Below the pieces are notes generated by a model, which worked only from the letters and a program-made list of their open reading frames with translations, was not told where the DNA came from and did no database searches. The translations under genes were made by a program, and so were the position numbers. Source: Candidatus Melainabacteria bacterium (GTDB taxonomy: Bacteria > Cyanobacteriota > Vampirovibrionia > 2-02-FULL-35-15). From it: a DNA stretch of 64,000 nt. Below, in pieces: positions 5,089 through 50,482 of the stretch. Positions within the stretch are counted from its first letter, which is position 1. Each line of letters starts with the position of its first letter. The stretch is taken from positions 406,661 through 470,660 of the forward strand of contig JAHFBF010000001.1 of NCBI GenBank assembly GCA_023250195.1, read 5' to 3'.

Positions 5089-8000
5089 TTATGGACATCC
5101 AGCCACCGGGGCATTACTGCCATCAGAACATACACAAACTCCATTTACTTTTGTTGCATTGGTAGGGCAGACACAAGTATTATAGTAATCATACTGACCA
5201 ATACCGCATATGCAGCCGTTTACCTGATCATAAGTATTCCCATAATTACATGAACATCCATTGGAACTTTGATATGAACTACCAGCACATGTACATGAAT
5301 TAGTCGAAGTAGAAACTTGTCCAGAAGCACAGTTTGGAGTACCAGTAGTTGTTACTACAGAACTGCACACAGTTAGATCACTATTACAAAGTTTTACATC
5401 AAGGTTAGATTGGAAACTGGAATTAAACTTAGATATTAAAGGTGATGTAGAACTATTTCCACAAAACACTGATGCATCAGAATGTACAGCAACATGATGA
5501 ATTGTCACAAGGTTTACACAGGAAGAAAAGTTTTTATTGTAATTTACTGTTACTGAACTACCGTTAATAGTGACACTATTTAATGTAATCTGATTTGCAG
5601 CACCTGTACAACCGCTGGCAACAGTATATGTTTGTCCTGATGGACACTGACAGGTTGAATCACTTCCAAGAGTTGCACTTCCAGTACATGTACATGGATT
5701 AAGATTTGAATACGCTTCGCCCGGCTCACAGTTATGAGCCCTAAAACAACCATTTGAAGAATAAGGTCCACTACCAGAAGGACATTGACATGTACCATCT
5801 GAACCTGCCATTGCATCTCCTGCACAATTACATGGATTTGATGAAGTTGAAACCTGCGAATTAGTACAAGTAGGAGTAGGACATCCAGATGCTGCATAAG
5901 TCTGTCCGTTTGTACATTGGCAGTATCCATTTGAATTAACTGTTGCACCAGAGGCACATGTACATGGATTACTAGATGTAGAAGCCTGGCTTGGTGAGCA
6001 ATAAGTTGTACTTCCAGCTGTTACAGTTACTATCTTTGAATCTTCTGAACATCCATTTGCATTGCATGCAACTACACGATACTCATAGCTTGTTCCTGAT
6101 GTAATACCATTATCGGTATATGTAGTAGTATTTGTTGAAAGGCTTTCTGTTAACAATGTCCAGGTTGATACCCCATAGTTTCGTCTGTATACTGAAAATA
6201 CTGTTTCATTATCTGCATTATCTGTCCATGTTAACAGTATTGTTCCATAAGTCTGTGAGTAAGCTGCTGTAAGAGCTGTTGGTGTTCTGGGGGAAGATCC
6301 TGTGGTACACCCGCTTGCTGAATAAGTTTGCCCACTTGGACACTGGCAAATTCCATTTGAATTTTTTGTTGCTGCTCCTGCACATTTACATAAATTAGAG
6401 GAGTTTGAAACTTCATCAGCGGCACAAGTATGCTGTGCTGCTGAACATTTTCCATTAGAATCAGGACTTGAGCTGTCAGAACATAAGCAGGTTAATAACC
6501 CGGTAGAAGATTTTTGAGGAGTAAGTAAAGCTGGACATGCTGCAACACATGTATCAAGGTAAGAATATTGAAGAGAATCAGGACACTTACATGATGGTGT
6601 CCCACCAGAATTAGAGATAAGTGGTGACTTGCATTGTGTTCCTAATAATGTTGATGATATACAAGAACCTGTCAATGGATCTTTCTTTTGACCTTCCGGA
6701 CAAATACAAATTCCTGAAATATCTTTTATAAAGCCAGGAGAACATGTACCATTACAAGCCAGTTTAGATTCCTCATATGCATATCCAATATCATCAAAAT
6801 TATTATTATCCCTGCAGAGACAGGCAGCTACATCCAGAATGACAGGAACTGAAGAAATTTTACCTGTAGAAAGATTAGATAAACTGGCAGAACTGCTGGA
6901 AACAGCCTGATAAGATAACTTTGAAGCCATACGAGCTTTTATAGAGTTACAGCATTGAATTGAAAAATATGGAGAGTTTCCATCAGTACAATCAATTATT
7001 TCTCCAAAGTCTAAATCACAGTTAAAATGACAGTTTTCAATCTCCGCTGGTGAGTTGTTTTCACATTGTCTGTGACAAAAATTATATTCACATTCTTCTG
7101 CCACATCTCCTGGAGAAGAATCTATCCCTGTAATTGGAGATAAAATAACTGGATTTGAAGGAACACAATACCGGTTCCCAAGAGAATTTTCTGCTACAAC
7201 CCAGCCAGGTTGTATTTCATCTGGACTAGCACTACTATCATCCACACAATCAGACTCTGAAAGTTCATCAGGCACCTGCAGGCAAAACAAATCTCTCTCG
7301 GGTTTACTAATACAGCTGTCACTTTGTATATCAATATCACAAAAGCTTTTCGAAGGTACACATTTTGGAGGTTTTATATTCTGGAAAACAGTACATTCAG
7401 AAGGTGGACAAGGGAGCTGTTTCACAAGACCAACCATAAAGTCATTTAACACCATAGAATAATTCCTACAAACTCTGGAACTATCTTCAGTCCTGCCAAC
7501 AAACTCACAATACCCTTTCCCAATACTACCTTCTTCAGCACTTAAGACAAAGTCAGTAACAAAATTAGGAAGGTTGCATTGAGGATTTGAAATGAGATTT
7601 TTCACATCATTACCAAGAGAAGCAGCTGCTTCTTCATCTTCTGTATCACAACGATCTGCAAACTGATTTATGTCACAATTTAAATCTCCAAATTCTGTAT
7701 CATCACCTGTATTAGACTGTAAATTTTCTAATTCTTTTTTTGCAACTTCCAGAGCCAGCTCTTCATCCTGTTTTGCCAGATTAGCTGTTAATGTAGTGCT
7801 TTCATTAACTATCAAAGGTTCATCTGCCTGTGCCCCATTGATTTCCGGATCATTATCCAAAGGAGTAATTGCAAAGAGATCTGTATCTGAGATTACATGA
7901 ATAACACCTACTGATAAGTCATCTTCAGCTACCTGATTTTTTAAGCTTGACCTTAAGGGATTCCTGTTGTTTACTGGTTTTACCATATCTGCTCTAACTT

Positions 8001-8604
8001 CAGTAAAAAAGGAACCATTTGGAGTTAACGTTACAATGCTATTCGAGATTTTATTACCAAGCAAATCTTCAACTACAACAAAACCAGAATTTTTTTGACT
8101 CACCATACCAACTACCAGTGTCGGAGTCCGGTAACTAAATGACTCTGTAGAAACATCAAGCATATTACTGACTATTCTTAGCTTGTAATTATCTGTCTGA
8201 AGAGCACTTGGTGGAATAGTTACACCTGATTGTGTTTTAACATTGAATAAGTTTACTGATAAAAATTTGCCATTTTTTTTATTCACTTTTCTGTTCTGTA
8301 ATTTAACTGCATCCTTAGATATGAGGAATTTTTTTGATGGATCTGCTATTGAACTTAAAATAATGGAAACATTATTCAAATCCCCCCTTAAAGTAGATAC
8401 AAGTACGGAATGGAGCGCAATAAACATTTGATCTTCCGTAGAATCTAAGACACTACCGTTAAGAACCTTCTCACCTTTATTATTTATAACTGTTAAAGCT
8501 CCATTGTTTGTGTTTTTTTTCTTAGCCACTGCTTCTGTAGAAAGGCCAAGAGATAAGAAAATCCCCATAAAAAAAGATAAAAATATAAAAGACAGTTTCC
8601 GCAT
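5089..8604 (-). CDS. giant secreted Cys-rich repeat protein with fibronectin type III-like domain; paralog of 991..4977
   Basis: 1171-aa ORF, signal peptide (MRKLSFIFLSFFMGIFLSLGLSTEAVA); N-domain alignable to the neighbour (e.g. TPTLVVGMVSQ / TPALVVGTVDS, FFTEVRAD in both); FN3-like segment TWTDNADNETVFSVYRR...YEYRVVACNANGCS; Cys-rich EGF-like modules. Confidence 0.8.
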   Translation of the reverse strand: MRKLSFIFLSFFMGIFLSLGLSTEAVAKKKNTNNGALTVINNKGEKVLNGSVLDSTEDQMFIALHSVLVSTLRGDLNNVSIILSSIADPSKKFLISKDAVKLQNRKVNKKNGKFLSVNLFNVKTQSGVTIPPSALQTDNYKLRIVSNMLDVSTESFSYRTPTLVVGMVSQKNSGFVVVEDLLGNKISNSIVTLTPNGSFFTEVRADMVKPVNNRNPLRSSLKNQVAEDDLSVGVIHVISDTDLFAITPLDNDPEINGAQADEPLIVNESTTLTANLAKQDEELALEVAKKELENLQSNTGDDTEFGDLNCDINQFADRCDTEDEEAAASLGNDVKNLISNPQCNLPNFVTDFVLSAEEGSIGKGYCEFVGRTEDSSRVCRNYSMVLNDFMVGLVKQLPCPPSECTVFQNIKPPKCVPSKSFCDIDIQSDSCISKPERDLFCLQVPDELSESDCVDDSSASPDEIQPGWVVAENSLGNRYCVPSNPVILSPITGIDSSPGDVAEECEYNFCHRQCENNSPAEIENCHFNCDLDFGEIIDCTDGNSPYFSIQCCNSIKARMASKLSYQAVSSSSASLSNLSTGKISSVPVILDVAACLCRDNNNFDDIGYAYEESKLACNGTCSPGFIKDISGICICPEGQKKDPLTGSCISSTLLGTQCKSPLISNSGGTPSCKCPDSLQYSYLDTCVAACPALLTPQKSSTGLLTCLCSDSSSPDSNGKCSAAQHTCAADEVSNSSNLCKCAGAATKNSNGICQCPSGQTYSASGCTTGSSPRTPTALTAAYSQTYGTILLTWTDNADNETVFSVYRRNYGVSTWTLLTESLSTNTTTYTDNGITSGTSYEYRVVACNANGCSEDSKIVTVTAGSTTYCSPSQASTSSNPCTCASGATVNSNGYCQCTNGQTYAASGCPTPTCTNSQVSTSSNPCNCAGDAMAGSDGTCQCPSGSGPYSSNGCFRAHNCEPGEAYSNLNPCTCTGSATLGSDSTCQCPSGQTYTVASGCTGAANQITLNSVTINGSSVTVNYNKNFSSCVNLVTIHHVAVHSDASVFCGNSSTSPLISKFNSSFQSNLDVKLCNSDLTVCSSVVTTTGTPNCASGQVSTSTNSCTCAGSSYQSSNGCSCNYGNTYDQVNGCICGIGQYDYYNTCVCPTNATKVNGVCVCSDGSNAPVAGCP

Positions 8605-8966: not shown

Positions 8967-9689
8967 ATGAAAAAGATAATTGCATTTGCACTGGCGTTGA
9001 TCTTGTTTGCACCAGTTGCATTAGCTGAAGAAAGCAGTTTTGAAAATTTGGTTTTAGATATTATTAAAAAAAATCCACAAGTTGTTAAAGAAGCTCTGGA
9101 AAAATATGAAAAAGAAGCTTCTGGCAAAAAACAGGAAGATGAATTTAATAAATTGTTTGAAGATACTGTAAAAGTTGAAATTGGTGATTCTCCTATAAGA
9201 GGAGATAAAAAAGCAGAATATACAATAATTGCTTTTTCAGATTTCCAATGCCCATTTTGCAAACGTGGTGATGACACAATTAAAGAGCTTATGAAAAAAT
9301 ATGACAAAAAAGTTAACTATGTTTTTAAAAATCTTCCTTTAGGTTTTCACCCTGAAGCAAAAAATGCAGCAAAAGCAACATGGGCAGCAGGCAAACAAGG
9401 GAAGTTTTACGAATATCACGATAAGTTATTCGAAAACCAAGGTAAACTTGCTGAGGATCTTTATGTTCAAATAGCAAAAGACTTAGGATTAAATCTTGAT
9501 AGATTCAACAAAGACAGGGCAAGTGAAGATGCTGAAAAATCAATTCAGGCAGACTCAAAACAAGCACAGGATATCGGTATTCAAGGAACCCCGGGATTTG
9601 TCTTGAACGGTGTTAAAATTCTTGGTGCCTATCCAATTGATCATTTTGAAAAAATTATTTCTCACTTTGAAACTACAGCAAAGAAGTAA
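8967..9689 (+). CDS. DsbA-like thioredoxin-fold thiol:disulfide oxidoreductase, secreted
   Basis: RBS AAGGAG 7 nt upstream; signal peptide (MKKIIAFALALILFAPVALA); CxxC active-site motif in FSDFQCPFCKRG; size typical of DsbA family. Confidence 0.75.
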   Translation: MKKIIAFALALILFAPVALAEESSFENLVLDIIKKNPQVVKEALEKYEKEASGKKQEDEFNKLFEDTVKVEIGDSPIRGDKKAEYTIIAFSDFQCPFCKRGDDTIKELMKKYDKKVNYVFKNLPLGFHPEAKNAAKATWAAGKQGKFYEYHDKLFENQGKLAEDLYVQIAKDLGLNLDRFNKDRASEDAEKSIQADSKQAQDIGIQGTPGFVLNGVKILGAYPIDHFEKIISHFETTAKK

Positions 9690-9840: not shown

Positions 9841-10242
9841 ATGAAAAAGAGTTTTAACAAAAGAGCAATTATGTCAGCATTAGCAATTACAGTCGGTGCT
9901 GCCGCCAGCACTTCTGCAGCTGATTTCAGTCTAAAAGAAGTTAATAGCCAGTCCTTACTTATTGCACATGACGGAGAAGCCAAGTGTGGTGAAGGTAAAT
10001 GCGGTGAAAAGAAAGAAACCACTACCAAAGCAAAGGCTGCTGAAGCCAAATGCGGTGAAGGTAAATGTGGTGAAAAAAAAGAAACCACTACCAAAGCAAA
10101 GGCTGCTGAAGCCAAATGCGGTGAAGGTAAATGTGGCAGCAAAAAAGAGAGAAAAACAAAAAAAGAAGCTACTAAAAAAGCAAAAAGTGCTGAAGCCAAA
10201 TGCGGTGAAGGTAAATGCGGCGAAGGCAAAACAAAGAAATAA
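9841..10242 (+). CDS. secreted Cys-Gly repeat protein, candidate HvfA/bufferin-like RiPP metallophore precursor
   Basis: RBS AAGGAG; Sec-type signal peptide (MKKSFNKRAIMSALAITVGAAASTSAA); four tandem copies of EAKCGEGKCGE(KKETTTKAKAA); the core matches EAKCGEGQCG at the end of the small ORF upstream of the MNIO gene at 45292..45444. Confidence 0.6.
   Translation: MKKSFNKRAIMSALAITVGAAASTSAADFSLKEVNSQSLLIAHDGEAKCGEGKCGEKKETTTKAKAAEAKCGEGKCGEKKETTTKAKAAEAKCGEGKCGSKKERKTKKEATKKAKSAEAKCGEGKCGEGKTKK
9978..10230 (+). repeat. about 66-bp tandem coding repeats (4 units) within 9841..10242
   Basis: Units AGCCAA(G/A)TG(T/C)GGTGAAGGTAAATG(C/T)GG... repeated head-to-tail; the opposite-strand ORF 9819..10229 is an artefact of this repeat. 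Confidence 0.85.
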
Positions 10243-39601: not shown

Positions 39602-39643
39602 TATAAATCTCTAAGGTTAATTATATACATGATGATATAACTT

Positions 39644-40255
39644 ATGAAATTAAAACAAATGATCCGGGTCTTTTTTATTCTGTTAATTATCTTTGGTCAT
39701 TTAAGCGATGCTTATGCATTTTCTAATTGTCAGGTGAAATATGACAGTGATAAGAGAGCTCTGCCGGCACTAAAAGGAATGTGTAATGTATGCCATTTAA
39801 GTGCAAACGGCAGTGGTCCACAGAATGAATTTGGAGTTGCCTTTAAAAATGCTGGTTTTAAAATCACTAATGATCTTGTAGCAAAATTTCCTGACTTCTT
39901 TCAGAAGCAGGTCTTAGATAATCTTCCCTCAGGTTCTACCTCAAGCAGTGGAGAAATTTTAAATAATCCTACTTCAGGTTCCACCTCAAGCAGTGGAGAA
40001 GCCCTGAAACCTGTTATAAGCAGAATAAAACCAGGCAAAGTAAAAACAAATGTTCAAACAATGATTTCAATAATGGGAAAGAATTTTGTCAACGGTGCAA
40101 AAACATTTGTAGACAATAATGAAGCTATAACTACATTTAAATCAAATGTTTTATTATTTGCAGATTTTATTTTAAATACAGTAGGCAAGCATGAAGTAAA
40201 AGTACAAAATCCTGATGAGCAGGAATCGAATACAGTTAAGGTAAAATCGAAGTAA
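39644..40255 (+). CDS. secreted protein with CxxCH motif (possible monoheme c-type cytochrome) and Ig-like C-terminal domain
   Basis: Signal peptide; KGMCNVCHLSANG contains CxxCH; two SGSTSSSGE repeats; C-terminal beta-rich segment. Confidence 0.45.
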   Translation: MKLKQMIRVFFILLIIFGHLSDAYAFSNCQVKYDSDKRALPALKGMCNVCHLSANGSGPQNEFGVAFKNAGFKITNDLVAKFPDFFQKQVLDNLPSGSTSSSGEILNNPTSGSTSSSGEALKPVISRIKPGKVKTNVQTMISIMGKNFVNGAKTFVDNNEAITTFKSNVLLFADFILNTVGKHEVKVQNPDEQESNTVKVKSK

Positions 40256-41185
40256 TTATTTCCTCAATAAATAAACAAAAACACCGCCAACATCATATGC
40301 CGGACCAAATCGTTTAACCAATTCAACTCTAAAACCAATGTTTTCTACTTCATTTCGAAATATAGAGTCTGATATTTTATAGTCGCCCCGGGATAAATCT
40401 ATTGAATTATCACCGATCGATTTAGTATTATACAATTCATCTATCTTATCCAGAAGCCGGCTTGCAAGTTTGTTTGCCATTTGAAAATCTTTTGTTTTAG
40501 CAGCATCTTCAATTAAATTTACATTCTCAATAATCAAGCCTATTTGTTCTTTGGATTTTACAGCTTCTTCATTATGGTTTTCATTTAAATCATCAAGTAA
40601 TGTTTTTACTTCTTCCTGGGCTAAATAATTAAACCCTGAATTCAATCCATTAGAAATGATATGCGAATACCAGATAACTGCTTTTATTCTTCTTTCAAGA
40701 TTATTAGAATATTCCGGTAAGTATTCATCACCAATAATATACACACCACCATTTTTCAGTTGGTTGTAAATGTTTTCAAGATACGACTTTAAAGGGATTC
40801 CCTTTTTAACATGGTGGTGAAAACCCTCACTATAAAATACATCTACAGGGAAAGGATGAACGTAGTTAGTAACATCATCACTAATTACTTTTATAGGCAG
40901 GCACTGTTCTTTTATTTTCCTGGAAGCATATTGAATAAAATCTTCGTCATAATCTACCCCTGTAAGATTTATATTTTTAACCTGTCCAATTAAAGTAAGA
41001 ATTCTTGCAGGACCGCATCCAAGTTCAATCACCTCTATAGATGTACTTAATTTCTCTGCTTCTATTGCAACCAGCTCTTTAATAAAATTATCAGCATTTG
41101 CAATATATAAATGTTCATGAGTATTTATGCGAATGTATTCTTCCGGTGAAATGATTGAAGAATAAGTAGGTAAATGCAGGCTCAT
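40256..41185 (-). CDS. class I SAM-dependent methyltransferase
   Basis: Motif I VIELGCGPARIL and acidic motif II LTGVDYDEDF. Confidence 0.7.
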   Translation of the reverse strand: MSLHLPTYSSIISPEEYIRINTHEHLYIANADNFIKELVAIEAEKLSTSIEVIELGCGPARILTLIGQVKNINLTGVDYDEDFIQYASRKIKEQCLPIKVISDDVTNYVHPFPVDVFYSEGFHHHVKKGIPLKSYLENIYNQLKNGGVYIIGDEYLPEYSNNLERRIKAVIWYSHIISNGLNSGFNYLAQEEVKTLLDDLNENHNEEAVKSKEQIGLIIENVNLIEDAAKTKDFQMANKLASRLLDKIDELYNTKSIGDNSIDLSRGDYKISDSIFRNEVENIGFRVELVKRFGPAYDVGGVFVYLLRK

Positions 41186-41283
41186 AATTACTTTAATTAT
41201 GAGGAATAAAGGCTTTAACCTTCAAGTGATTTCATCGATTAAAAATTAAATGTTTCTTAAGAATACTATGATTAACAGATCAA

Positions 41284-41330
41284 TGTAACCAGGAGTTACA
41301 TTTAGATTGAGTTTGTAACCCTGGGTTACA
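41284..41330. promoter_or_regulatory. pair of 17-bp palindromes TGTAACCAGGAGTTACA and TGTAACCCTGGGTTACA (operator-like)
   Basis: Two TGTAAC-N5-GTTACA sites 30 bp apart in the divergent promoter region between 40256..41185 and the ORF6N gene. Confidence 0.5.
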
Positions 41331-41359
41331 CAAAAATAAAGTTACTTATTCAATTTACT

Positions 41360-41917
41360 TTGATAAAAATAATTTTATGCTTTAATAAAGCACTAATTAT
41401 GAGAACTATCTTAATTCCAGAAGAAAAAATTGAAAATAAAATCTTCCTTATGAGAGGAAAAAGAGTAATGCTAGATAAAGATTTAGCTGAACTTTATGGA
41501 GTAAAGACCAAAGTTTTAAATCAAGCTATAAAAAGAAACATGGAAAGATTTCCTGAAGATTTTATGTTTCAATTGACAAAAGAAGAGGCTAATTCTTTAA
41601 GGTCACAATTTGTGACCTTAAAACGTGGAGAACATTTAAAATATCTGCCTTATGCCTTTACAGAACAAGGTGTAGCTATGCTATCCTCTGTTTTAAATTC
41701 CAAAAGAGCAATTCAAGTAAATATCCAGATTATGCGGATATTTACAAAGCTTAGAGAAGTCATAGCCAACAATAAGGAAATTATGCAAAAGCTTAATCAA
41801 CTTGAAAGTAAAATTGAAAAACACGATTCAGAAATTCAGTCTATCTTTGAAGCAATCCGGCAATTAATTTCTATTCCGGAAAAACAAAAAAGAAAGGTTG
41901 GTTTTTATACAAATTAA
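41360..41917 (+). CDS. ORF6N (KilA-N-related) domain DNA-binding protein
   Basis: MRGKRVMLDKDLAELYGVKTKVLNQAIKRNMERFPEDFMFQLTKEE...YLPYAFTEQGVAMLSSVLNSKRAIQVNIQIMRIF is a near-consensus ORF6N domain; coiled-coil C-terminus. Confidence 0.85.
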   Translation: MIKIILCFNKALIMRTILIPEEKIENKIFLMRGKRVMLDKDLAELYGVKTKVLNQAIKRNMERFPEDFMFQLTKEEANSLRSQFVTLKRGEHLKYLPYAFTEQGVAMLSSVLNSKRAIQVNIQIMRIFTKLREVIANNKEIMQKLNQLESKIEKHDSEIQSIFEAIRQLISIPEKQKRKVGFYTN

Positions 41918-42081
41918 GAATGCTGCGGATTAATTGGTATTGGTTCTGATTTTTTCTCTTGATTTTGATTTTCTTGTTGATTTTGTAGATTGTTATTTTG
42001 TTTATTTCCAAATTTACTTTGAATAAAAGAACATCCCTGACAACAGACACAAATTAAAATTATTAGTAAAAACTTAGACAT
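41913..42081 (-). CDS. unannotated small secreted/lipoprotein-like ORF (55 aa)
   Basis: ATG at 42081..42079; MSKFLLIILICVCCQGCSFIQSKFGNKQNNNLQNQQENQNQEKKSEPIPINPQHS; hydrophobic N-terminus with Cys cluster; below the ORF-track length cutoff. Confidence 0.3.
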
Positions 42082-42093
42082 AGTAGTCAGATT

Positions 42094-42402
42094 TTAACCC
42101 GATATATTCTCTTTATACAAGAGGTCATTTAAGACTTCTCCACCAAGCAGATGTTTTTGAATTAAATCTTCAACTCTATCTTCTGTAAAGCCACAATATA
42201 CTGTCCCTTCAGGCCATACCACTATATTTGGCCCTTTTCCGCATAAACCCAGACAAAGCACCCTTGAAGGCCTATAAGTTTTCTTTAAATCAAGCTCTTT
42301 TATCCTTGCTTTAAGTTTTTCAAAGACTTTATCACTACCCTGACATTTACAGGTTTCATTTAAGCAAACCAATACATGCTTTTTATATGGAATGTTATGC
42401 AT
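42094..42402 (-). CDS. thioredoxin-like [2Fe-2S] ferredoxin
   Basis: Four Cys in the family pattern: HVLVCLNETCKCQGS ... VLCLGLCGKGPNIVVWPEGTVY. Confidence 0.7.
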   Translation of the reverse strand: MHNIPYKKHVLVCLNETCKCQGSDKVFEKLKARIKELDLKKTYRPSRVLCLGLCGKGPNIVVWPEGTVYCGFTEDRVEDLIQKHLLGGEVLNDLLYKENISG

Positions 42403-42883
42403 TTCCCTTTAATCTCTTTTCTATAATCTTATTATATTTTTCAATGTTATCCTCACCAATTAAACTTTCAATAACCTGTTTTGTCTTTGAATCAATAAAA
42501 ATAACTATGCCACTATATCTTTGTGATTTATAAACTGCTTCCAAGTCAAGTACTTTTGCTATTCTTTTTGACTTAATTACTGTAAAAGGATTTGAAAGAT
42601 CATACTTTAAAAAAACTAAATCTGGATTTTGTGAATAATCCTGCTGAAGCTTCTCAAATACAGGTTCAATGAATTTGCAGGTCTCACATCTGTTGTGATA
42701 AACATCCAGAATTATTAACTTTGAATTATTTACCTTGTTTACTATATCCTGCACATTTGCTTTTTCGGCTGCTGATTGAATACCTAAATTACTGCAACCG
42801 CAGAATAAAATAATCGTAAGTGATAATAAATAAGTAGTAAGTAAAAGCTTTTTTAAAAAAATCATCAGATTCAATCTTTTCAT
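42395..42883 (-). CDS. thioredoxin-like protein (CxxC), probable lipoprotein/periplasmic
   Basis: Signal peptide ending LFCGCS; CxxC motif HNRCETCKFIEPVFEKL; overlaps the ferredoxin gene start by 8 nt (operon). Confidence 0.6.
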   Translation of the reverse strand: MKRLNLMIFLKKLLLTTYLLSLTIILFCGCSNLGIQSAAEKANVQDIVNKVNNSKLIILDVYHNRCETCKFIEPVFEKLQQDYSQNPDLVFLKYDLSNPFTVIKSKRIAKVLDLEAVYKSQRYSGIVIFIDSKTKQVIESLIGEDNIEKYNKIIEKRLKGNA

Positions 42884-43014
42884 AGTAAGATTATATTATG
42901 TCAGCTGCATTTACGTTCTCACAGTTTATAGGCTTTGTCCGATTTATTCGGCAAAGCCGGTCAAATGTAATTACAAAGCCACGGGAAGTGCAAACTTGTT
43001 TTGCACTATAAAAA

Positions 43015-43722
43015 ATGAATAACCTTCTTAGCAACTTTGAACAAGCAGTTTCAAATTTTTTAAAAGGAACACACGGATTGCCTTTACCTTTCCTTATATT
43101 GCTTTCTTTTGGCGGAGGGCTTGCTGCAAGTTTAACCCCCTGTGTAGTTGCAATGTTACCAATGAACTTAAGTTATATTGGTACTGCTAATATCACATCC
43201 AAATTTGACGCATTGAAAAAATCTCTTTTTTTTGTTTTAGGCGCTGCCTTTATTTTTAGTCTGCTTGGATTGTTTGCTTCTTTTGCCAGTTTTATTATGA
43301 TTGAGTACAGAGGCTATGTACATGTAATTATTGGAATATTTGTTTTATTTATGGCATTATCAGAACTTGAAATAGTAAAACTCCCATTACCACAGTTCAT
43401 TACACAAATTCCAAATGGTGGACCATTTCTTGTAGGTATGGCATTTGCACTTGCAAGTTCTCCATGCGCAAGCCCAATTTTATTTGCAATTTTAGCTATG
43501 TCCAGTACTGCCGGATCATTAATCGGTGGGACACTAATAATGATTGCTTATTCTATAGGCTATACAGGGGTAATTTTTATAGCAGGCTTATTTGCAGGCA
43601 TTGCAAAACAGTTGGATTATTTTAAAAAGCATTCAAAAATTATTTCAATAGTAAGCGCAACAATCCTTGGAATTATTGGTGGATTTTATTTATATTCAGG
43701 GATTAGATGGTTTACAGGATGA
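43015..43722 (+). CDS. CcdA/DsbD-family transmembrane thiol:disulfide electron transporter
   Basis: 6-TM protein with the two conserved Cys: LSFGGGLAASLTPCVVAMLP and LASSPCASPILFAIL. Confidence 0.75.
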   Translation: MNNLLSNFEQAVSNFLKGTHGLPLPFLILLSFGGGLAASLTPCVVAMLPMNLSYIGTANITSKFDALKKSLFFVLGAAFIFSLLGLFASFASFIMIEYRGYVHVIIGIFVLFMALSELEIVKLPLPQFITQIPNGGPFLVGMAFALASSPCASPILFAILAMSSTAGSLIGGTLIMIAYSIGYTGVIFIAGLFAGIAKQLDYFKKHSKIISIVSATILGIIGGFYLYSGIRWFTG

Positions 43723-43725
43723 CAA

Positions 43726-44472
43726 TCAAATTAATATTCTGCTCTTCTTTAATACACTAACTAATTTCATAGCTTCTTTCTCAAAATTCTTATAATTACT
43801 CTTATCCACCTGGTAAGCATTTGCCAGGAAATATATAACCATATCAATTGATAACCCGGATTTTAAAAGTTCTATAAATGCAAAACTACTTGTTGAAAGC
43901 TCAAAAAATCTTACATTGAAATTCTTTGGATCCCGATAAATTAGAACATTTGTTATTTGTTTATATATCTTCCCTAAAGGTTGATTATTTTCAATCATTT
44001 CAACAATTTCAGGAATTGCATATTGAAAAGCACAAATCTCATGTACTGGATTCAAGCAAAGAGTCTTATTAGCTTTCTTAATTCCTTCTTTCTCATATAT
44101 TTTCACTTCAAGCCATTCATAACATGCAAGTTCACTTATAAAAGGATAGTTTTTTAAGATGTCTTTTCTCGTAAATAAATATTCGGGTAAATGCTCAACT
44201 ACTTTATTAAAAATTGGAGAGCCTGGCGGATATTTTTCCAAATAATCAGATAATAAATCGTCCCAAATTTTACTCAATAACTTATAAGTCACCGGATAAA
44301 TATTTACAGATAAATCGTGAAAAGAACCTCTGACTAATTCACGGTAAATTTTTATTCTTTCAAGGATTGACCTGGATAAACCTTTAACTTTATTTTTTTT
44401 ACTCCAGACAGAATCAAATAGAATCAAATCTTTAATTACTTTTTGAGTTTTTTTTAGACTATTTAAAGTCAC
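43726..44472 (-). CDS. DUF2063-family partner protein of the MNIO enzyme (HvfC/BufC-like)
   Basis: Start overlaps the MNIO stop (translational coupling); N-terminal half follows the DUF2063 pattern (IYRELVRGSFHDLSVNIYPVTYKLL...YPPGSPIF...LPEYLF...PFISELACYEWLE). Confidence 0.65.
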   Translation of the reverse strand: MTLNSLKKTQKVIKDLILFDSVWSKKNKVKGLSRSILERIKIYRELVRGSFHDLSVNIYPVTYKLLSKIWDDLLSDYLEKYPPGSPIFNKVVEHLPEYLFTRKDILKNYPFISELACYEWLEVKIYEKEGIKKANKTLCLNPVHEICAFQYAIPEIVEMIENNQPLGKIYKQITNVLIYRDPKNFNVRFFELSTSSFAFIELLKSGLSIDMVIYFLANAYQVDKSNYKNFEKEAMKLVSVLKKSRILI

Positions 44473-45347
44473 TAAGCCGCCTTCTTAAAAGATTTCATAA
44501 TAGTCTTGATTTTTTTTATTTCATTGAGCAGTTCTGAGAACTTTGGGAAATTAAAATCCCTTTCCAGCAATACTGCTTTTGGTGTGCATCTTTTTAAAAG
44601 TTCACCAAATAAATTGTAAACATCTCTGATAATTGGTTCACCATGCGTATCAATAATAATTTTCCCTCTGTTTAAATGCCCTGCTATATGTACCTGTACA
44701 GTACGTTCAATAGGAATACTATCCAAAAACCTTATCGGGTCATATTTATGATTTTTACTGTTTACATAAACATTATTTATATCTAGAAGTAACCCACAAT
44801 CTGCTTTTTCAAGGATTTGTGAAATGAAATCTGCTTCACTCATTTCATTATCTATAACCATATAATAAGAAGGATTTTCAATCAAAAAAGGAACCTGGAA
44901 AATATCCTGAGCTTTTTTTATTCTATTTACTAAATGTTTGACTGTAACTTTGTTATAAGGTAAAGGAATCAAGTCATGAATGTATGTTTTCTCAACATAG
45001 TTAAAACATAAATGATCACTAAACCATGAGGGGTCTATAATTTTAAAAAGCTTTTTTACGTTATTAATTAAAGCCGGATCAAACGGTTCTGTACCACCAA
45101 TTGAAAGATTTAATCCATGAGGAATAATTGGAAAATATTTTTTAGCATTTACAAGCCTTTCAAATATTTCTCCACCACGACAGATATAATTCTCAGGAGC
45201 AATTTCAAGCCAGTCAATTTGATTTTTATGTCTCAGAATAGGGCTATATAACTCTCTTCTTAGTCCAAGTCCAACCCCAAAATTTGGTAATTTATTTTTT
45301 TCTTTTTGAAATGTTTTTCCCATCACCGCCACATTGACCTTCACCAC
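44472..45347 (-). CDS. MNIO (multinuclear non-heme iron-dependent oxidative enzyme, DUF692), RiPP-modifying
   Basis: Ordered DUF692 hallmark motifs: FGVGLGLRRE, WLEIAPENY, HGLNLSIGG, FSDHLCF, FLIENPSYY, LLLDINNVYVNS, VQVHIAGH, IIDTHGEPI, AVLLERDFNFP. Start uncertain (GTG 45347 or ATG 45323). Confidence 0.85.
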   Translation of the reverse strand: MVKVNVAVMGKTFQKEKNKLPNFGVGLGLRRELYSPILRHKNQIDWLEIAPENYICRGGEIFERLVNAKKYFPIIPHGLNLSIGGTEPFDPALINNVKKLFKIIDPSWFSDHLCFNYVEKTYIHDLIPLPYNKVTVKHLVNRIKKAQDIFQVPFLIENPSYYMVIDNEMSEADFISQILEKADCGLLLDINNVYVNSKNHKYDPIRFLDSIPIERTVQVHIAGHLNRGKIIIDTHGEPIIRDVYNLFGELLKRCTPKAVLLERDFNFPKFSELLNEIKKIKTIMKSFKKAA

Positions 45348-45444
45348 ACTTAGCTTCTATGTAATGCTTCAATCGATCCTCACAAGATCGGATTTGCCGG
45401 ATAAACCAGACAAATCCTTTAAATACTAGAGCATTGTTTGTCAT
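45292..45444 (-). CDS. candidate RiPP precursor peptide (leader plus EAKCGEGQCGGDGK core)
   Basis: 50-codon ORF from ATG 45444 (alternative TTG 45474), 20 nt downstream of the CoA-transferase stop and overlapping the MNIO start; C-terminal core EAKCGEGQCG matches the repeat of 9841..10242; no Sec signal peptide. Confidence 0.5.
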   Translation of the reverse strand: MTNNALVFKGFVWFIRQIRSCEDRLKHYIEAKCGEGQCGGDGKNISKRKK

Positions 45445-45463
45445 ATCAGATAAAATATTAACA

Positions 45464-47260
45464 CTATTTTGCAATTACCTGCCCAGTTGGATCAATCTCT
45501 TTTCTTAATATTTTCAGTTCTTTTTGTGTAGGCTCTTTTGTTATTGGAGCAGCTTTGAGACCTGCTTTTACATTAATCTTGAAGGATGATCTGTTTTGCA
45601 CTTCTTCTAATGTAATCCCCGGATGCAAACTCTCAATTTGCATTTCTTTTGTTTCTTTATCAAATCCAATTACACAACAATCAGTTATTACTTTTAAAGG
45701 GCCTGCATTTGGTGGTAGTCCTGCTTTTTCTCTGCTCCCTGCTCCAGTTAAATATCCCGGCGTGGTTAGAAAATCAAGCTTCTCTACAAATTTATGCTTG
45801 TCCATCTTGATTATAATAATAGTATTCCAGCAAAGGGAAGCCAGATCATTTGCCCCGCCGCTGCCGGGAAGCCTGACTTTTGGTTTTTCATAATTAGTGC
45901 CAATCATAGTGGAATTTAGATTCCCATATTTATCTATCTGAGCACCACCTAAAAATGCATAATCAACCATTCCACGGGCACAGGTCTCCATAATCTCAGG
46001 CATGCTTGTTGCTACAAGGCTTTTATAGTGGGTCCTTGAATCACCTACAGACATTGGAAGTGATGGAAGTAAAGGTGCTATACCACCTGCTTCAAACATC
46101 ATTAAAAGATTTGGTGCCTGAGTTTTCTGTGCAAGCATAGCAGCTAACATTGGAAGCCCTGTTCCAACAACGACAGTCTTTCCATCTTCTAAAAATCTGC
46201 TTGCGGTACAGATCATGAACTCAGTCATGTTATATGACTGCGTATTGCGTATCGAGTATTGTGTATTGAGTTTAGGCTCTGGTTTGAGTTCCATCGTCTT
46301 TAATTCTTCCAATTTATTTTTTCCACCACAAATTTCCAGATAGCCATTCCAATCTTTAATATCATAAATGTATTTATTTAAAAATTTTTCGAAGGTCTGA
46401 AGCTCTTTTTCTGCTTCACTCCACTCTCTCAAATGCTCCAAATCAAAGTAATATTTCCCCGGCATGTTACATGGATAAGAACCATAAGGCACATGAACAA
46501 CAGCATCTACACAATAATAAGGAATAATAGTTCTTTCAGGCTCTGATCTTATTTGATCCGTAGAAATTATTTCTTCTGTAGTAATGATTATCTTTTTTGA
46601 CGCTCTAGCTAAATCACTATCAGAAACAGTAATTCCATCTATCTGGCAATTTCCAAACTCATCTGCTCGCGGAACATGAATTATTGCTACATCAGGGGAA
46701 CAGGCTGGAACAAGAGCATATATTTCTCCAGTAAATGGACATTTGTATTCAATTGCCCTGCTGTGTTTTATGGTTTCAGTTCCAAGCATAGATCGAACCG
46801 GCAAAAATGATAATCCCATCGCAGCTGCTTTAAATCGCCATGCAAGTGTTGCGTTTGTCCATTCAGTAACTTTTACTTTTCCTTCCTGAAAAACTCTTCT
46901 GTAATTTGGTGAAAGTCCTAAAAGCTCAATACCCACCACATACGCTGCATCTACTTTATCTATACAACCTCCTGCACAAAGAATCTGCCCATCATGCGTA
47001 GCAGTATGTCCTGCAAGTGCCAGGTGTTTTTTCTTTTGCCTGACAATTTCATGCAATGCAGCAGCCGGGATTCTATCCATTCCAAATCCGCCAATTCCAA
47101 GATAATCTCCATCCTGAACAAGTCTTTGAATCGCAGACTTTAGATCAGTGATTTTACTGATCATTTTTCTTGATTTTTTAAGGTTAATTTCTCGAAGCTG
47201 ATCGGGCGAGGTAAAACCATATAGTTCACGATCTTGTTTTGTATAAGTGGATATATTCAT
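45464..47260 (-). CDS. family I CoA-transferase, fused A and B subunits (glutaconate/3-oxoacid CoA-transferase-like)
   Basis: N-half LVQDGDYLGIGGFGMDRIP...TEWTNATLAWRFKAAAMGLSFLP (A subunit) and C-half with GSGGANDLAS and MMFEAGG (B subunit); linker contains a short tandem repeat. Confidence 0.75.
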   Translation of the reverse strand: MNISTYTKQDRELYGFTSPDQLREINLKKSRKMISKITDLKSAIQRLVQDGDYLGIGGFGMDRIPAAALHEIVRQKKKHLALAGHTATHDGQILCAGGCIDKVDAAYVVGIELLGLSPNYRRVFQEGKVKVTEWTNATLAWRFKAAAMGLSFLPVRSMLGTETIKHSRAIEYKCPFTGEIYALVPACSPDVAIIHVPRADEFGNCQIDGITVSDSDLARASKKIIITTEEIISTDQIRSEPERTIIPYYCVDAVVHVPYGSYPCNMPGKYYFDLEHLREWSEAEKELQTFEKFLNKYIYDIKDWNGYLEICGGKNKLEELKTMELKPEPKLNTQYSIRNTQSYNMTEFMICTASRFLEDGKTVVVGTGLPMLAAMLAQKTQAPNLLMMFEAGGIAPLLPSLPMSVGDSRTHYKSLVATSMPEIMETCARGMVDYAFLGGAQIDKYGNLNSTMIGTNYEKPKVRLPGSGGANDLASLCWNTIIIIKMDKHKFVEKLDFLTTPGYLTGAGSREKAGLPPNAGPLKVITDCCVIGFDKETKEMQIESLHPGITLEEVQNRSSFKINVKAGLKAAPITKEPTQKELKILRKEIDPTGQVIAK

Positions 47261-47267
47261 TTGGAAT

Positions 47268-47364
47268 ACGTCATTGCGAGGGCTTTAGCCCGAAGCAATC
47301 TCCCTAACTAATTCACGTTTTTGAGATTGTTTCGTCAGCCCTTTGGGCTTCCTCGCAATGACGT
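47268..47364. repeat. compound palindromic element (14-bp terminal inverted repeats ACGTCATTGCGAGG / CCTCGCAATGACGT with two internal hairpins)
   Basis: Lies 8 nt upstream of the CoA-transferase start and just downstream of the flavin-reductase stop; related to elements at 48071..48154 and 63073..63148. Confidence 0.75.
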
Positions 47365-47392
47365 GAATAGTTCTTTTTTTGTAATTCAGTAC

Positions 47393-48052
47393 TCATTTGT
47401 TATTTGGGTTCTCTCCAACAGGTATTTTTATCGTAGGCCTTGGTAAGCTAAATATATCAGTCACTCTTGCATAATCTGTACCGCCTAGCCTTGCTATCGG
47501 TTTTAATTCACTTAAAATAATTTTACCATCCTTATAAACATTCTCCTGGACATGAAAATATACAACTTCACCAATAACTACCGTTCCACCACCTGGTTTG
47601 TTTCCAATTTCTACCAGGTGTAACAACTTACACTCCATGTTTATTTTTGCTTCTTTTACAAGTGGTGGTTTAACCATATTTGCTCGTACAGGTGTTAAAC
47701 CACTTTCCTTAAACTCATCAACACCATAAGAATATTCAGCAGAACATTGATTCATCTTTTCAGCAATTTCTTCAGAAACAATATTTACAACAAACTCTTT
47801 AGTAACTTTTATGTTTTTTAAAGTGTCTTTTTCCTGTCCATCAGATCCACGAACAACCGGACAAAATAAAACAGTCATTGGCTCAGAACAAACACCATTA
47901 AAAAAACTAAAGGGGGCAAGGTTATAAATACCATTTGGGCTTACAGTAGAAACAAATCCAATTGGCCTTGGAACAATTGAACCAATAAGTAATTTATACC
48001 GATCCTGAAAAGGAATTTCTTTTGTATTTATAGAGATTTTATTTTCAGTCAT
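47393..48052 (-). CDS. flavin reductase-like (FMN-binding split-barrel) protein
   Basis: YKLLIGSIVPRPIGFVSTVSPNGIYNLAPFSFFNGVCSEPMTVLFC matches the flavin-reductase-like domain. Confidence 0.8.
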   Translation of the reverse strand: MTENKISINTKEIPFQDRYKLLIGSIVPRPIGFVSTVSPNGIYNLAPFSFFNGVCSEPMTVLFCPVVRGSDGQEKDTLKNIKVTKEFVVNIVSEEIAEKMNQCSAEYSYGVDEFKESGLTPVRANMVKPPLVKEAKINMECKLLHLVEIGNKPGGGTVVIGEVVYFHVQENVYKDGKIILSELKPIARLGGTDYARVTDIFSLPRPTIKIPVGENPNNK

Positions 48053-48070
48053 GAAAATATTTTAGCGTAT

Positions 48071-48154
48071 ATGTCATTCCCCGGCTTGACCGGGGAATCC
48101 AGAAACTCACACTAATAACTATCTCCTGGATACCCGCTTCCGCGGGTATGACAT
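48071..48154. repeat. compound palindromic element (ATGTCATTCC-hairpin-GGAATCC ... GGATACC-hairpin-GGTATGACAT)
   Basis: Two GC-rich hairpins (CCCCGG-CTTGA-CCGGGG; CCCGC-TTCC-GCGGG) bounded by inverted ATGTCAT/ATGACAT; 19 nt upstream of the flavin-reductase start. Confidence 0.75.
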
Positions 48155-48191
48155 TTTATTGTAATGGACATTTCTACATTACAATTATTAT

Positions 48192-48920
48192 ATGTTCCTT
48201 CAAAAAGATGAATTAAGCAAATTTAACTTTATCTCTACAAAAGAATTTCTTTTAGCACTATTGCTAATGCTAATTACAACAATCTCCTGCTTTATCATTC
48301 TGCCCGTTTTTCTCAAACAGAATTCACTTGTCCAGAAAGATTTTTTTGACTCAAATTACTTTGGAATTATTGTTTTTTTTCTTTCTTCTATATTCACCTT
48401 ATACATTACTTATTTCTTCTGTTGTCAAAGAAAAAACAGACCTTTAAAAGAAGGATTGTTTCTATCTATGCCATCAAACAAAATTTTTCTTATCTCTATT
48501 TTAATTGGAATCCTTATGCCTTTGCTCTCACTGCCAGTAATTTTTAAATTTGCACCAGATGAATTTTACGCAATGGATCTGATTAATACAAAAGCTGGTC
48601 TTCTTTATCTTTTTACATGTGCACTATTCGCTCCGATATTTGAGGAAATCTTTTATCGCGGTTTTATCTTTCCTTTTTTTCAAAGCAAATTAAATAGTTT
48701 CTGGGCCATTATAATCACTGCTTTATTTTTTGGATTTTCACATTTTATGAATATTGGAAATGCTCATATTTTGCTTAGTTTGTTTATTTTTTATGGCTTT
48801 GTTTTAACCTTAATCAGATACTTTTCAAACTCTTTAATCCCTTCCATAATCACCCATTTCGTTCATAATCTGACACTTATGATCAGCTTTTTTATAATGT
48901 CAAAGACTGCTTTAGGTTAA
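48192..48920 (+). CDS. CPBP-family intramembrane metalloprotease (CAAX protease / Abi-like)
   Basis: Conserved motifs FAPIFEEIFYRG (EExxxR), FGFSHFMN (FxxxH) and ITHFVHNL (HxxxN) in a polytopic membrane protein. Confidence 0.8.
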   Translation: MFLQKDELSKFNFISTKEFLLALLLMLITTISCFIILPVFLKQNSLVQKDFFDSNYFGIIVFFLSSIFTLYITYFFCCQRKNRPLKEGLFLSMPSNKIFLISILIGILMPLLSLPVIFKFAPDEFYAMDLINTKAGLLYLFTCALFAPIFEEIFYRGFIFPFFQSKLNSFWAIIITALFFGFSHFMNIGNAHILLSLFIFYGFVLTLIRYFSNSLIPSIITHFVHNLTLMISFFIMSKTALG

Positions 48921-48997
48921 GAAGATTAAGTTATTTTAAGGATTCAATTTCACTAGGAAAGACTTGCTAGGATAAAAATATATTTAAGGAAATTTCA

Positions 48998-50482
48998 TTG
49001 ATACCAACGAGACCAAAATCTTCTGAAGAACCTCGTGCCTATAATAGGCTTGAGTTCCTTGCATTGAGGATAAAACAAGGCTTAAAATCTGAGGCATTAC
49101 CAATAGAACCCGATAAACGAAGAGGATTAGTTGATGATCTTGAGAACCAGTTAAGGTTAGGGAATTACAACTATGCCGTTACAGTTGCACTTCGAGAAAT
49201 GGGTTTAACCAGCAAAGAGCTTCAAATAATTGGCGATACCTATACTCCTCCAGGTCTTTATTCCAAAGTAGAATCATCTAGAATACTTGGTTTTAATGAA
49301 TATAGAGATCCTGATTTATTAAAAGGCAAACCACTTGGTGGATTTAATGTTCAATCCATAACCACTCCATCCGGTGAATGGGCAAGGAAACCTACTCTTA
49401 TTGATGGAAGGACTTGCTTTGATAACAACCTGGAAATAGTAAGGTCTGATCTTTTAATGAGAGAACTTATTCAGAGATATTTACCCAGAATCATTGTTCC
49501 TGATGCATTTGCCCATGTAAGTGATAACTACATTATAAAAGTCTGGTCAAAGATAGTAGAGTCAGAAGAAATTAAACCATTAAACGATTCAGAGGAAGCA
49601 AAAAGAAAAGCAGAGGAAGAAGCACAATCCTTATGTAAAAATTATATGGAAGATTTATCTTTAGCATCTTTTCTTTTTGGAGTAAGAGACTTAAGGAAAG
49701 TTAACATCCGTTGGAAAAATGAGCAACCAGTTTTAGTTGATTTTGGAATGCTTGTTACAGAACCTTACATTTATCCAGTTGCAAAAGCAAAAACACTGAT
49801 AGAATCCGGCGAAACACCTTTCGTAGATCCTGCAGGAGGTAACAGATTAGAACCTTATCTGGCTAGACTGGAACAATGGAAAAGAGAATCCTATAAACCA
49901 GCTGAAATTCGTTCTATGATGCATGATTTAGGTTTTGATACTGCTTCAATTGACAAGTATCTCAAGACTTTATCTAAAAATATTGATTCATCATATGAAA
50001 CTAATATGAAAACTTTTATTGCTTTAGCTAACGGTACATTACCGGAAGACTTTTTAAGTAAACTTGGCTGGAGAGGCAATAAAACCCCAGGAACAAATAT
50101 TACATTTCCATCCCCTATTCCTGAAGAACTAGCTGAAGATAAGGACTTAGTAGCTAAATTGTTAATTGATCAAAGGAAAGAAATTGATTTCCCTAAACAT
50201 GGTCAAATTTTACTTGAAGTAGGTTCAAGTAATTTTGTAATTTTAGAAAAATTGCCTGATAAAGCCGGCTTTAAGATCACCTTTATTAAAGGCAGTGGAA
50301 AAGAAGAACTGGAAGAAGTAATAATTAATAAAGATAATTTCGTAATTGGTAGCAAGACAGGAGACCTTCTAATTGAAAACCAGTCGGTAGCTAGAAAAGG
50401 ACATGTTCAAGTAGAATTTAAAAATAATAGAGTTTTATTAACGCCACTGGATATAGACTATACTACTAAAATTTGGTCCTAA
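48998..50482 (+). CDS. hypothetical protein with protein-kinase-like core signature and FHA-like C-terminal domain
   Basis: TTG start with AAGGA RBS; YIIKVWSK (VAIK-like), VRDLRKVNIRW (catalytic-loop-like), LVDFGM (DFG), VTEPYIYP; C-terminal FVIGSKTGDLLIENQSVARKGHVQVEF...LTPLD resembles an FHA domain. Assignment is by eye only. Confidence 0.35.
   Translation: MIPTRPKSSEEPRAYNRLEFLALRIKQGLKSEALPIEPDKRRGLVDDLENQLRLGNYNYAVTVALREMGLTSKELQIIGDTYTPPGLYSKVESSRILGFNEYRDPDLLKGKPLGGFNVQSITTPSGEWARKPTLIDGRTCFDNNLEIVRSDLLMRELIQRYLPRIIVPDAFAHVSDNYIIKVWSKIVESEEIKPLNDSEEAKRKAEEEAQSLCKNYMEDLSLASFLFGVRDLRKVNIRWKNEQPVLVDFGMLVTEPYIYPVAKAKTLIESGETPFVDPAGGNRLEPYLARLEQWKRESYKPAEIRSMMHDLGFDTASIDKYLKTLSKNIDSSYETNMKTFIALANGTLPEDFLSKLGWRGNKTPGTNITFPSPIPEELAEDKDLVAKLLIDQRKEIDFPKHGQILLEVGSSNFVILEKLPDKAGFKITFIKGSGKEELEEVIINKDNFVIGSKTGDLLIENQSVARKGHVQVEFKNNRVLLTPLDIDYTTKIWS

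Follow-up and report, generated by a model that had tools for sequence, protein, structure and literature searches.

We have analyzed a 64-kb stretch of DNA from Candidatus Melainabacteria bacterium (contig JAHFBF010000001.1, positions 406,661 to 470,660; G+C content 35%), hereafter the window. It carries on its minus strand a short open reading frame (ORF) with a Cys-Gly motif, a gene for an enzyme of the MNIO (DUF692) family and a gene for an HvfC-like DUF2063 partner, all three packed gaplessly. The locus is probably a captophorin maturation unit of the oxazolin/fontiphorin type, with a naturally minimised precursor, in Melainabacteria. An earlier note on this DNA had read the trio as a candidate for an uncharacterised metallophore system of the RiPP (a ribosomally made peptide that is modified after translation) class; that observation is confirmed here and the interpretation is partly supported. 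What appears to be new, by sequence comparison, is a natural precursor with no signal peptide and a single unit, confined to one subclade of Melainabacteria and dispensable there.

The short precursor ORF and its conservation

The short ORF (45292..45444(-)) encodes 50 amino acids (aa) from ATG 45444, MTNNALVFKGFVWFIRQIRSCEDRLKHYIEAKCGEGQCGGDGKNISKRKK, and its C-terminus reads EAKCGEGQCGGDGKNISKRKK. As the earlier note had described, it lies upstream of the MNIO gene and runs across its start: the overlap covers the first 32 nucleotides (nt) of that gene, and the codons for Asp41 and Gly42 (GAT GGG) contain the MNIO ATG. An alternative start at TTG 45474 gives 60 aa (45292..45474(-)). A further in-frame TTG at 45372, with GAGGA 4 nt upstream (45370..45380(-)), gives a 26-aa form, MKHYIEAKCGEGQCGGDGKNISKRKK, which is close in length to the 29-aa form of L154 (loci and proteins of relatives are designated here by L and P numbers). 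The ATG of the L154 peptide occupies the position homologous to ATG 45444.

The core of the peptide (45319..45357(-), EAKCGEGQCGGDG) had been described as a single CGEGxCG motif. It consists in fact of two consecutive canonical 5-mers of the x-x-K/Q-C-G type, EAKCG and EGQCG, followed by a clade-specific GDG; Cys33 and Cys38 are the predicted modification sites. Such a 5-mer repeat defines the Buf_EGKCG/oxazolin precursors (PMC12452194), which correspond to the Lys-Cys captophorins (PMC13097082). Profile scores for so short a peptide are borderline. On the HvfA-family domain model NF050137 (cutoff 19.5) the 60-aa form scored 19.5 bits and the 50-aa form 18.2 bits, the other short peptides of the clade scored lower or did not match, and the HvfA equivalog model NF050188 (cutoff 95) gave no match for the window's short peptide. 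The protein collection contains no called gene with exactly the sequence of the short ORF. When all six frames of the window were scanned for CG-x(2-4)-CG, only two ORFs matched, this one and a long HvfA-type precursor at 9841..10242(+), which is discussed below and whose sequence, with its present start, is likewise absent from the called genes. Because only these two ORFs match and the motif is kept beside MNIO genes in relatives, the motif of the short ORF is not a chance occurrence.

Eleven close loci, with MNIO proteins 66-88% identical, were compared. A short ORF with an invariant CGExxCGGDG motif, placed before or overlapping the MNIO start, is found in 6 of the 11 (the window, L081, L154, L084, L086 and L001). 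The expectation that the small ORF would be conserved beside the enzymes in related genomes thus holds, within one subclade: in the MNIO tree the carriers form a single subclade with one secondary loss (L083, where a 152-aa ORF occupies the gap), and four basal lineages have no such ORF. Searches with a word index and an exhaustive hidden Markov model (HMM) search of 1.84 billion representatives recovered about 20 distinct short peptides of 29-58 aa, and all remaining matches of those searches were canonical long multi-repeat HvfA proteins. Across the roughly 20 short relatives the CGExxCGGDG motif is kept, with the first Gly replaced by Ser in some and the second Cys lost in one; it is invariant across 9 aligned peptides. 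Wherever the context could be seen, the peptide is encoded directly upstream of an MNIO gene. The gene for P0157, for example, directly precedes an MNIO-HvfC pair and overlaps it, and the genes downstream of the pair are arranged as in the window. On the contig of P0166 a truncated gene of unknown family lies downstream of the short ORF and is overlapped by it. A scan of metagenomes for the CGExxCGGDG pattern at the DNA level returned many chance matches in GC-rich DNA; among the matches listed, L154 was the sole new relevant locus.

The codons of the core show purifying selection at the protein level. In the eight invariant residues, compared at the DNA level over the six loci, third codon positions vary in 8 of 8 cases and first or second positions in 0 of 16 (P = 1.4e-6), so that all 8 variable sites are synonymous and none is non-synonymous. 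Between the window and L154 the 13 codons of the core differ by 6 synonymous changes and 1 non-synonymous change, and an in-frame indel of 63 nt separates the two sequences between the homologous ATG and the core. The frame of the ORF relative to the MNIO gene also varies: the two share a frame with one stop between them in L001 (TAAATG), overlap in different frames in the window and L081, and are separate in L086, where about 18 nt lie between the end of the ORF and the MNIO start. Since the variation in the invariant residues is synonymous only, the frames differ and the indel is in frame, a purely nucleotide-level constraint on the core is excluded. The varying frame relation was also the ground for rejecting that the peptide extends the MNIO at its N-terminus or is joined to it by a frameshift. 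Judged by this pattern of substitution, the short ORF is a real gene.

The short ORF could also be a regulatory upstream ORF, important chiefly for a translation that is coupled to, or gates, that of the MNIO, possibly according to the state of copper or thiols, while the peptide itself would serve no purpose. In the window and L081 stop and start overlap by 32 nt, and in L001 they adjoin (TAAATG), which would suit such coupling, as would the lack of a terminator-like site between the genes (a promoter and terminator scan of 42000..48300 gave fewer sites than shuffled sequence and tells little overall). MNIO loci without the peptide show, in addition, that the enzymes can work alone. Coupling, however, calls for neither a conserved Cys-Gly-Glu nor a double 5-mer resembling a substrate; it is also at odds with L086, where the genes do not overlap, and an Rfam scan of 41000..49000 found nothing, with no riboswitch or leader RNA evident. 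We regard a purely regulatory role as quite improbable.

The maturation enzymes and the predicted product

The MNIO gene (44472..45323(-)) encodes 283 aa from ATG 45323, which is likely the true start, as in database protein P0001 and most homologues; counted from a GTG, the ORF extends over 44472..45347(-). The hallmark motifs listed in the earlier note are all present. The Pfam profile PF05114 (MbnB_TglH_ChrH) matches with 320 bits (cutoff 25) over positions 1-262 of 263. HvfB and BufB are the top NCBIfam models, at 299 bits on NF003818 (equivalog cutoff 360) and 286.5 bits on NF050167 (equivalog cutoff 310), and the ApyH, ChrH and MbnB models score far lower; the last of these, TIGR04159, gives 46.8 bits against a cutoff of 325, which places the enzyme outside the methanobactin group. 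By the NCBI thresholds the protein is a relative of HvfB and BufB and an equivalog of neither. In a PDB sequence search the nearest solved structure was 3BWW of Histophilus somni (E = 8.5e-55); TglH (8HCI) and MbnB (7DZ9) were also matched, with every ligand-bearing motif aligned. The nine ligand positions (H69, H104, E149, D181, N184, H212, D225, H227 and E254), whose roles are taken from published work on MbnB and HvfB, are invariant in an alignment of the MNIO with 14 homologues, as are the motifs HGxN, SDH, EN, D-x-x-N, HxAG, DTH and ERD.

The type of substrate is suggested by two further motifs, GLGLRR (R22, R23) and ERDF (D256, F257), both of which also occur in 3BWW. They appear to correspond to Arg15/Arg16, the catalytic Asp249 and Phe250 of FonB, an equivalence read from the motifs with a numbering offset that is constant at 7. 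The Asp-Phe pair (Asp249/Phe250) and Arg15/Arg16 mark Lys-Cys-type enzymes (PMC13097082). By its motifs the window's MNIO has the Arg-Arg, the catalytic Asp and the Phe, and we describe it as an HvfB/BufB-like enzyme of the Lys-Cys (EGKCG) type.

The partner gene (43726..44472(-)) encodes 248 aa, and its GTG start overlaps the MNIO stop (TAGTG), as the earlier note had recorded. Its assignment to DUF2063 is borne out by PF09836, at 38.7 bits (cutoff 27.2). The match to PF22106 (NGO1945_C) is weak, at 22.7 bits and under the cutoff of 27. On the HvfC model NF050145 the protein scores 91.4 bits (E = 7.5e-26, profile positions 24-234 of 237) and does not reach the cutoff of 142; a PDB sequence search with the partner gave no match. 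The arrangement of a DUF2063 N-domain and an NGO1945_C/RRE-like C-domain, encoded directly after the MNIO, is that expected of an HvfC partner of PME type 1.

The conservation of the short peptides can be set beside what is known of the Fon enzymes. Among 21 short peptides, the first position of the 5-mer is E or D in all except P0157, which has Q; the fourth is C, the fifth is G or S, and the second and third vary freely. P0148 departs from this in its second 5-mer, which has Y and S. The enzyme needs Cys in the fourth place and a small residue in the fifth, largely tolerates changes at positions 2 and 3, and accepts most residues at position 1 other than Arg or Pro; FonA with one 5-mer is left unprocessed, and with two 5-mers (core EAKCGEGKCG) it loses 8 Da (PMC13097082). 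The core of the window's short peptide, EAKCGEGQCG, is one tolerated position away from this minimal substrate. The pattern of conservation mirrors the measured requirements (PMC13097082). Similarly, HvfA cut down to one AEGKCGEGKCG unit, with no signal or N-region, is still modified twice, and modified HvfA binds one Cu(I) per pair of modifications (PMC11252979). For this family the modification, earlier given as oxazolone/thioamide, has since been reassigned as 5-thiooxazole (PMC13097082; 10.64898/2026.07.17.739211).

The earlier note held that the product is probably not a described compound. Core, specificity residues and catalytic Asp all agree with those of the thiooxazole-forming group that has been characterised (PMC13097082). 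The chemistry is therefore expected to be of a described type instead, and by analogy the most likely product is a short peptide in which two 5-thiooxazoles form one Cu(I) site. In the mechanism that we propose, the 283-aa MNIO and its HvfC-like partner would form a complex which, with a multi-iron cofactor and O2, would convert Cys33 and Cys38 of EAKCG-EGQCG into two 5-thiooxazoles, with a change of -4 Da each, and the pair of heterocycles would make up one high-affinity Cu(I) site. Having no Sec signal, the product would stay in the cytoplasm unless another export route exists.

The lack of a Sec signal, claimed in the earlier note, is seen in all of the short peptides. It was judged from the length of uncharged runs and of stop-to-stop frames. 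Ahead of the core, uncharged runs reach at most 6 residues in the window peptide and at most 9 in any of the 21 short peptides, compared with 16-19 in canonical long precursors; several of the stop-to-stop frames, moreover, span only 33-46 codons, too short for a signal. Precursors of this kind have been described as signal-bearing, and PME-type-1 partners correlate with signal-bearing precursors (PMC12452194), a correlation that the present locus breaks. The short peptides share a leader motif with the long ones. F-x-[LIM]-x-E-[IV] is found in most short peptides about 12 residues before the first Cys, and follows the signal peptide in long HvfAs (FSLKEV in the window, FSLKEI in P0140, and FQMNEV and FQLSEV in Vampirovibrio). 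Because of this shared leader the short genes look like hvfA without its signal and with all but one unit removed, and they probably derive from a neighbouring canonical hvfA through loss of the signal peptide and the additional repeats.

Several observations weigh against a functional minimal precursor of this type. The peptide is absent from 5 of the 11 close loci that keep both MNIO and HvfC (L083 and L088-L091), which makes it dispensable. No Shine-Dalgarno sequence precedes ATG 45444, and the scores of both the MNIO and the HvfC-like partner lie below the NCBIfam equivalog cutoffs. PME type 1 has been tied to signal-bearing precursors, and the signal has been suggested to aid recognition in Buf1 (PMC12452194). 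The GGDG codons double as the start or ribosome-binding (Shine-Dalgarno) region of the MNIO gene, so that their conservation is in part not driven by the peptide. Finally, in the window's own subclade (core EAKCGEGQ) the leader motif is lost, a degenerate WFIRQI remaining, and one member of that subclade, P0148 (40 aa), has the core CSEGNYSGDG, in which the second Cys and one Gly are gone; it is apparently a decayed copy. The loss of the leader in this subclade and of the second Cys in P0148 lowers our confidence in the window copy.

Some of these points would also be expected if the short gene were vestigial, that is, the decaying 3' end of an ancestral adjacent hvfA, kept solely by its overlap with the translation-initiation region of the MNIO, with the distal HvfA as the sole substrate. 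This is the main rival explanation. The patchy distribution, the decayed P0148, the missing Shine-Dalgarno sequence and the MNIO ATG or Shine-Dalgarno site within the GGDG codons all suit it, as do the highly variable N-terminal regions with their indels and the presence of a canonical HvfA elsewhere in the window. It is disfavoured by the codon-position evidence, in which every variable site of the invariant residues is a synonymous third position, although less so for the leader-poor copy of the window. Both Cys and the Glu, furthermore, lie 15-30 nt upstream of the MNIO start, beyond any Shine-Dalgarno constraint; the frame relation to the MNIO changes from locus to locus; and every member keeps an ATG start and an open frame. 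The leader motif shared with canonical precursors and a conservation that follows the requirements of the enzyme (PMC13097082) also count against it. We therefore consider a vestigial remnant unlikely, and prefer the short gene as a minimised captophorin precursor.

The distal secreted precursor and the gene neighbourhood

The long HvfA-type precursor (9841..10242(+)), overlooked in the earlier note, has 133 aa with a Sec signal, the leader FSLKEV and four AEAKCGEGKCG units containing eight Cys. It scores 59.6 bits on NF050137 (cutoff 19.5) and 74.3 bits on the HvfA model NF050188, under the cutoff of 95. A second MNIO close to this gene was considered and rejected, as no second MNIO or HvfC is present anywhere in the 64-kb window; the sole MNIO pair lies about 35 kb away. 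The long HvfA is probably a second substrate of that pair, which would most likely mature it along with the short peptide, and is possibly the main one. In relatives that have no short gene, for which loci of 12 kb were examined, a distal precursor is presumably the only substrate.

Adjoining the long HvfA gene is one for a DsbA-like periplasmic thiol oxidoreductase (8967..9689(+)), with matches to PF01323 and PF13462 and a weak match to ScsC_N (E = 0.005), a domain annotated as copper-resistance. The linkage is kept in L212, where a DsbA-like gene lies upstream of the HvfA homologue P0140 with an ECF sigma/anti-sigma pair inserted between them; no MNIO gene is near P0140. A functional link between the DsbA-like protein and HvfA may be inferred from this arrangement.

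Around the MNIO locus, genes for a CoA-transferase, a flavin reductase, a CPBP protease, CcdA, a Trx-like protein and a 2Fe-2S ferredoxin are found in most loci of the close clade, with the peptide or without it. The earlier note had taken this neighbourhood as atypical and as an argument for a novel product. One could accordingly suppose a new RiPP class, with an undescribed MNIO modification and with the flanking redox genes or the CPBP protease engaged in tailoring or processing. Such a class would account for scores of MNIO and partner under the HvfB, BufB and HvfC equivalog cutoffs, for a GGDG tail and a missing signal that are unique to the clade, and for the conserved order of neighbours across it. 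The argument from the neighbourhood fails on wider comparison. None of 79 more distant MNIO loci has these neighbour genes; some close relatives have unrelated genes inserted at the junction of the CoA-transferase and MNIO genes or, as in L081, other genes in place of the downstream ones; and the neighbours are equally present where the peptide is absent. The match of core, specificity residues and catalytic Asp to the thiooxazole-forming group (PMC13097082) also points away from it. We judge a new class to be the least probable of the explanations considered, marginally behind regulation alone. The neighbouring redox genes were rejected as members of the gene cluster on the strength of the distant loci and the junction insertions; the neighbourhood is lineage synteny, and the functional unit consists of the MNIO, HvfC and the peptide.

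In close relatives the point where the CoA-transferase and MNIO genes meet is a hot spot of insertion. It holds a 196-aa ORF in L081 (5117..5707), the 152-aa ORF of L083 (5495..5953), an AAA_14/DUF4143 gene in L088 (4720..5883), and a radical-SAM-like gene with a 623-aa gene in L089 (1753..5953). DoxX, which is frequent and not obligatory in captophorin/oxazolin clusters, was not found among the ORFs scanned at 38258-50482.

Other features of the window and its relatives may be listed briefly. Between the ferredoxin gene and an HD-domain gene lie a phage-regulator-like ORF6N-domain gene (41360..41917) and a SAM methyltransferase gene (40256..41185), and the corresponding genes are closer or adjacent in several relatives. 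A 55-aa lipoprotein-like ORF (41914..42081(-)) with a Cys-rich hydrophobic N-terminus, LIILICVCCQGCS, has no family match; L083, L084, L086, L090 and L091 have ORFs of 55-68 aa at the corresponding position behind the 2Fe-2S ferredoxin gene. Two further genes encode secreted proteins: one of 203 aa (39644..40255(+)), in which a CxxCH motif (MCNVCH), as is typical for the attachment of c-type haem, precedes a TIG/choice-of-anchor-Z repeat domain, and one of 1171 aa (5089..8604(-)) that is very rich in Cys and has many repeated C-x-C...G...C-x-C-P-S-G segments. In the Obscuribacterales (L002-L015), signal-bearing precursors with KGKEGSCK repeats (Cys-Lys type) are encoded about 100-500 nt upstream of the MNIO gene. 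The enzymes of these loci have ERDQN where the window's clade has ERDFN, and several of the loci encode a second upstream protein with a single ACGKGSCG motif.

Known systems and biological meaning

The oxazolin system HvfA/HvfB/HvfC of nontypeable Haemophilus influenzae (PMC11252979) resembles the locus in its gene order of precursor, MNIO and DUF2063 partner, in providing the best NCBIfam models for both enzyme and partner, and in a core unit A-E-x-K-C-G-E-G-x-C-G; its truncation dSNR2-3, with one unit and neither signal nor N-region, is close to what the window encodes naturally. It differs in that HvfA has a Sec signal, three units (6 Cys, against 2 in the window's one unit) and an N-terminal disulfide region. 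The window further lacks a DoxX gene, has a second canonical precursor 35 kb away, comes from Melainabacteria rather than Pseudomonadota, and scores under the equivalog cutoffs. The fontiphorin system FonA/FonB/FonC of the captophorins (PMC13097082) shares the Lys-Cys signatures of the MNIO (Arg-Arg after GLGL, Asp-Phe in ERDF). The core of its minimal substrate FonA_PE, EAKCGEGKCG, is nearly that of the window, EAKCGEGQCG, and its need for two 5-mers whose fourth residue is Cys and whose fifth is small agrees with the conservation in the window's clade. FonA itself is long and secreted, with seven sites; a natural short form, a GGDG tail and the lack of a signal are undescribed for captophorins.

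Likeness to the bufferins BufA/BufB/BufC (Buf1/DUF2282, Buf2; PMC12452194) extends to the BufB score of 286.5 bits, the PME-type-1 partner and an expected thiooxazole and copper-buffering role, and ends at the precursor, which is not of the DUF2282 or Buf2 families, has no signal peptide and is not predicted to be periplasmic. Methanobactin (MbnA/MbnB/MbnC) likewise pairs an MNIO with a short signal-less leader-core peptide containing two Cys and one Cu(I) site (predicted in the present case). Its chemistry, by contrast, is oxazolone/thioamide; the window's partner is DUF2063 and not MbnC, the enzyme scores 46.8 bits on an MbnB model that asks for 325, and genes for a transporter, a TonB receptor and a leader protease are lacking.

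The locus reveals no new chemistry and no new kind of system. MNIO/PME1 systems (bufferins, oxazolin, fontiphorin) have come to be regarded as a response to copper stress that is very widespread among bacteria, and the present case extends the class to the Melainabacteria, non-photosynthetic relatives of Cyanobacteria. It also offers a case in which a single maturase pair has two precursors, one beside it and one far off. The precursors of these systems are notable among RiPPs for their Sec signals; a conserved precursor with a single two-Cys unit and no signal is a counter-example to the correlation reported in PMC12452194. It is a natural counterpart of the minimal substrates built in the laboratory, and could be a handy small model for the enzymology and for a single-site Cu(I) thiooxazole complex.

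The short precursor also raises the possibility of a role in the cytoplasm. More tentatively, and with somewhat less than even expectation, we suggest that the short peptides are the first natural non-secreted captophorins, of 26-58 aa, acting inside the cell with one bis-thiooxazole Cu(I) site each, either to buffer or chaperone copper or as partners of the PME-type-1 maturase, which would also serve the secreted paralogue. If this is true, a Sec signal is needless for recognition in nature, and a single enzyme pair would supply both compartments.

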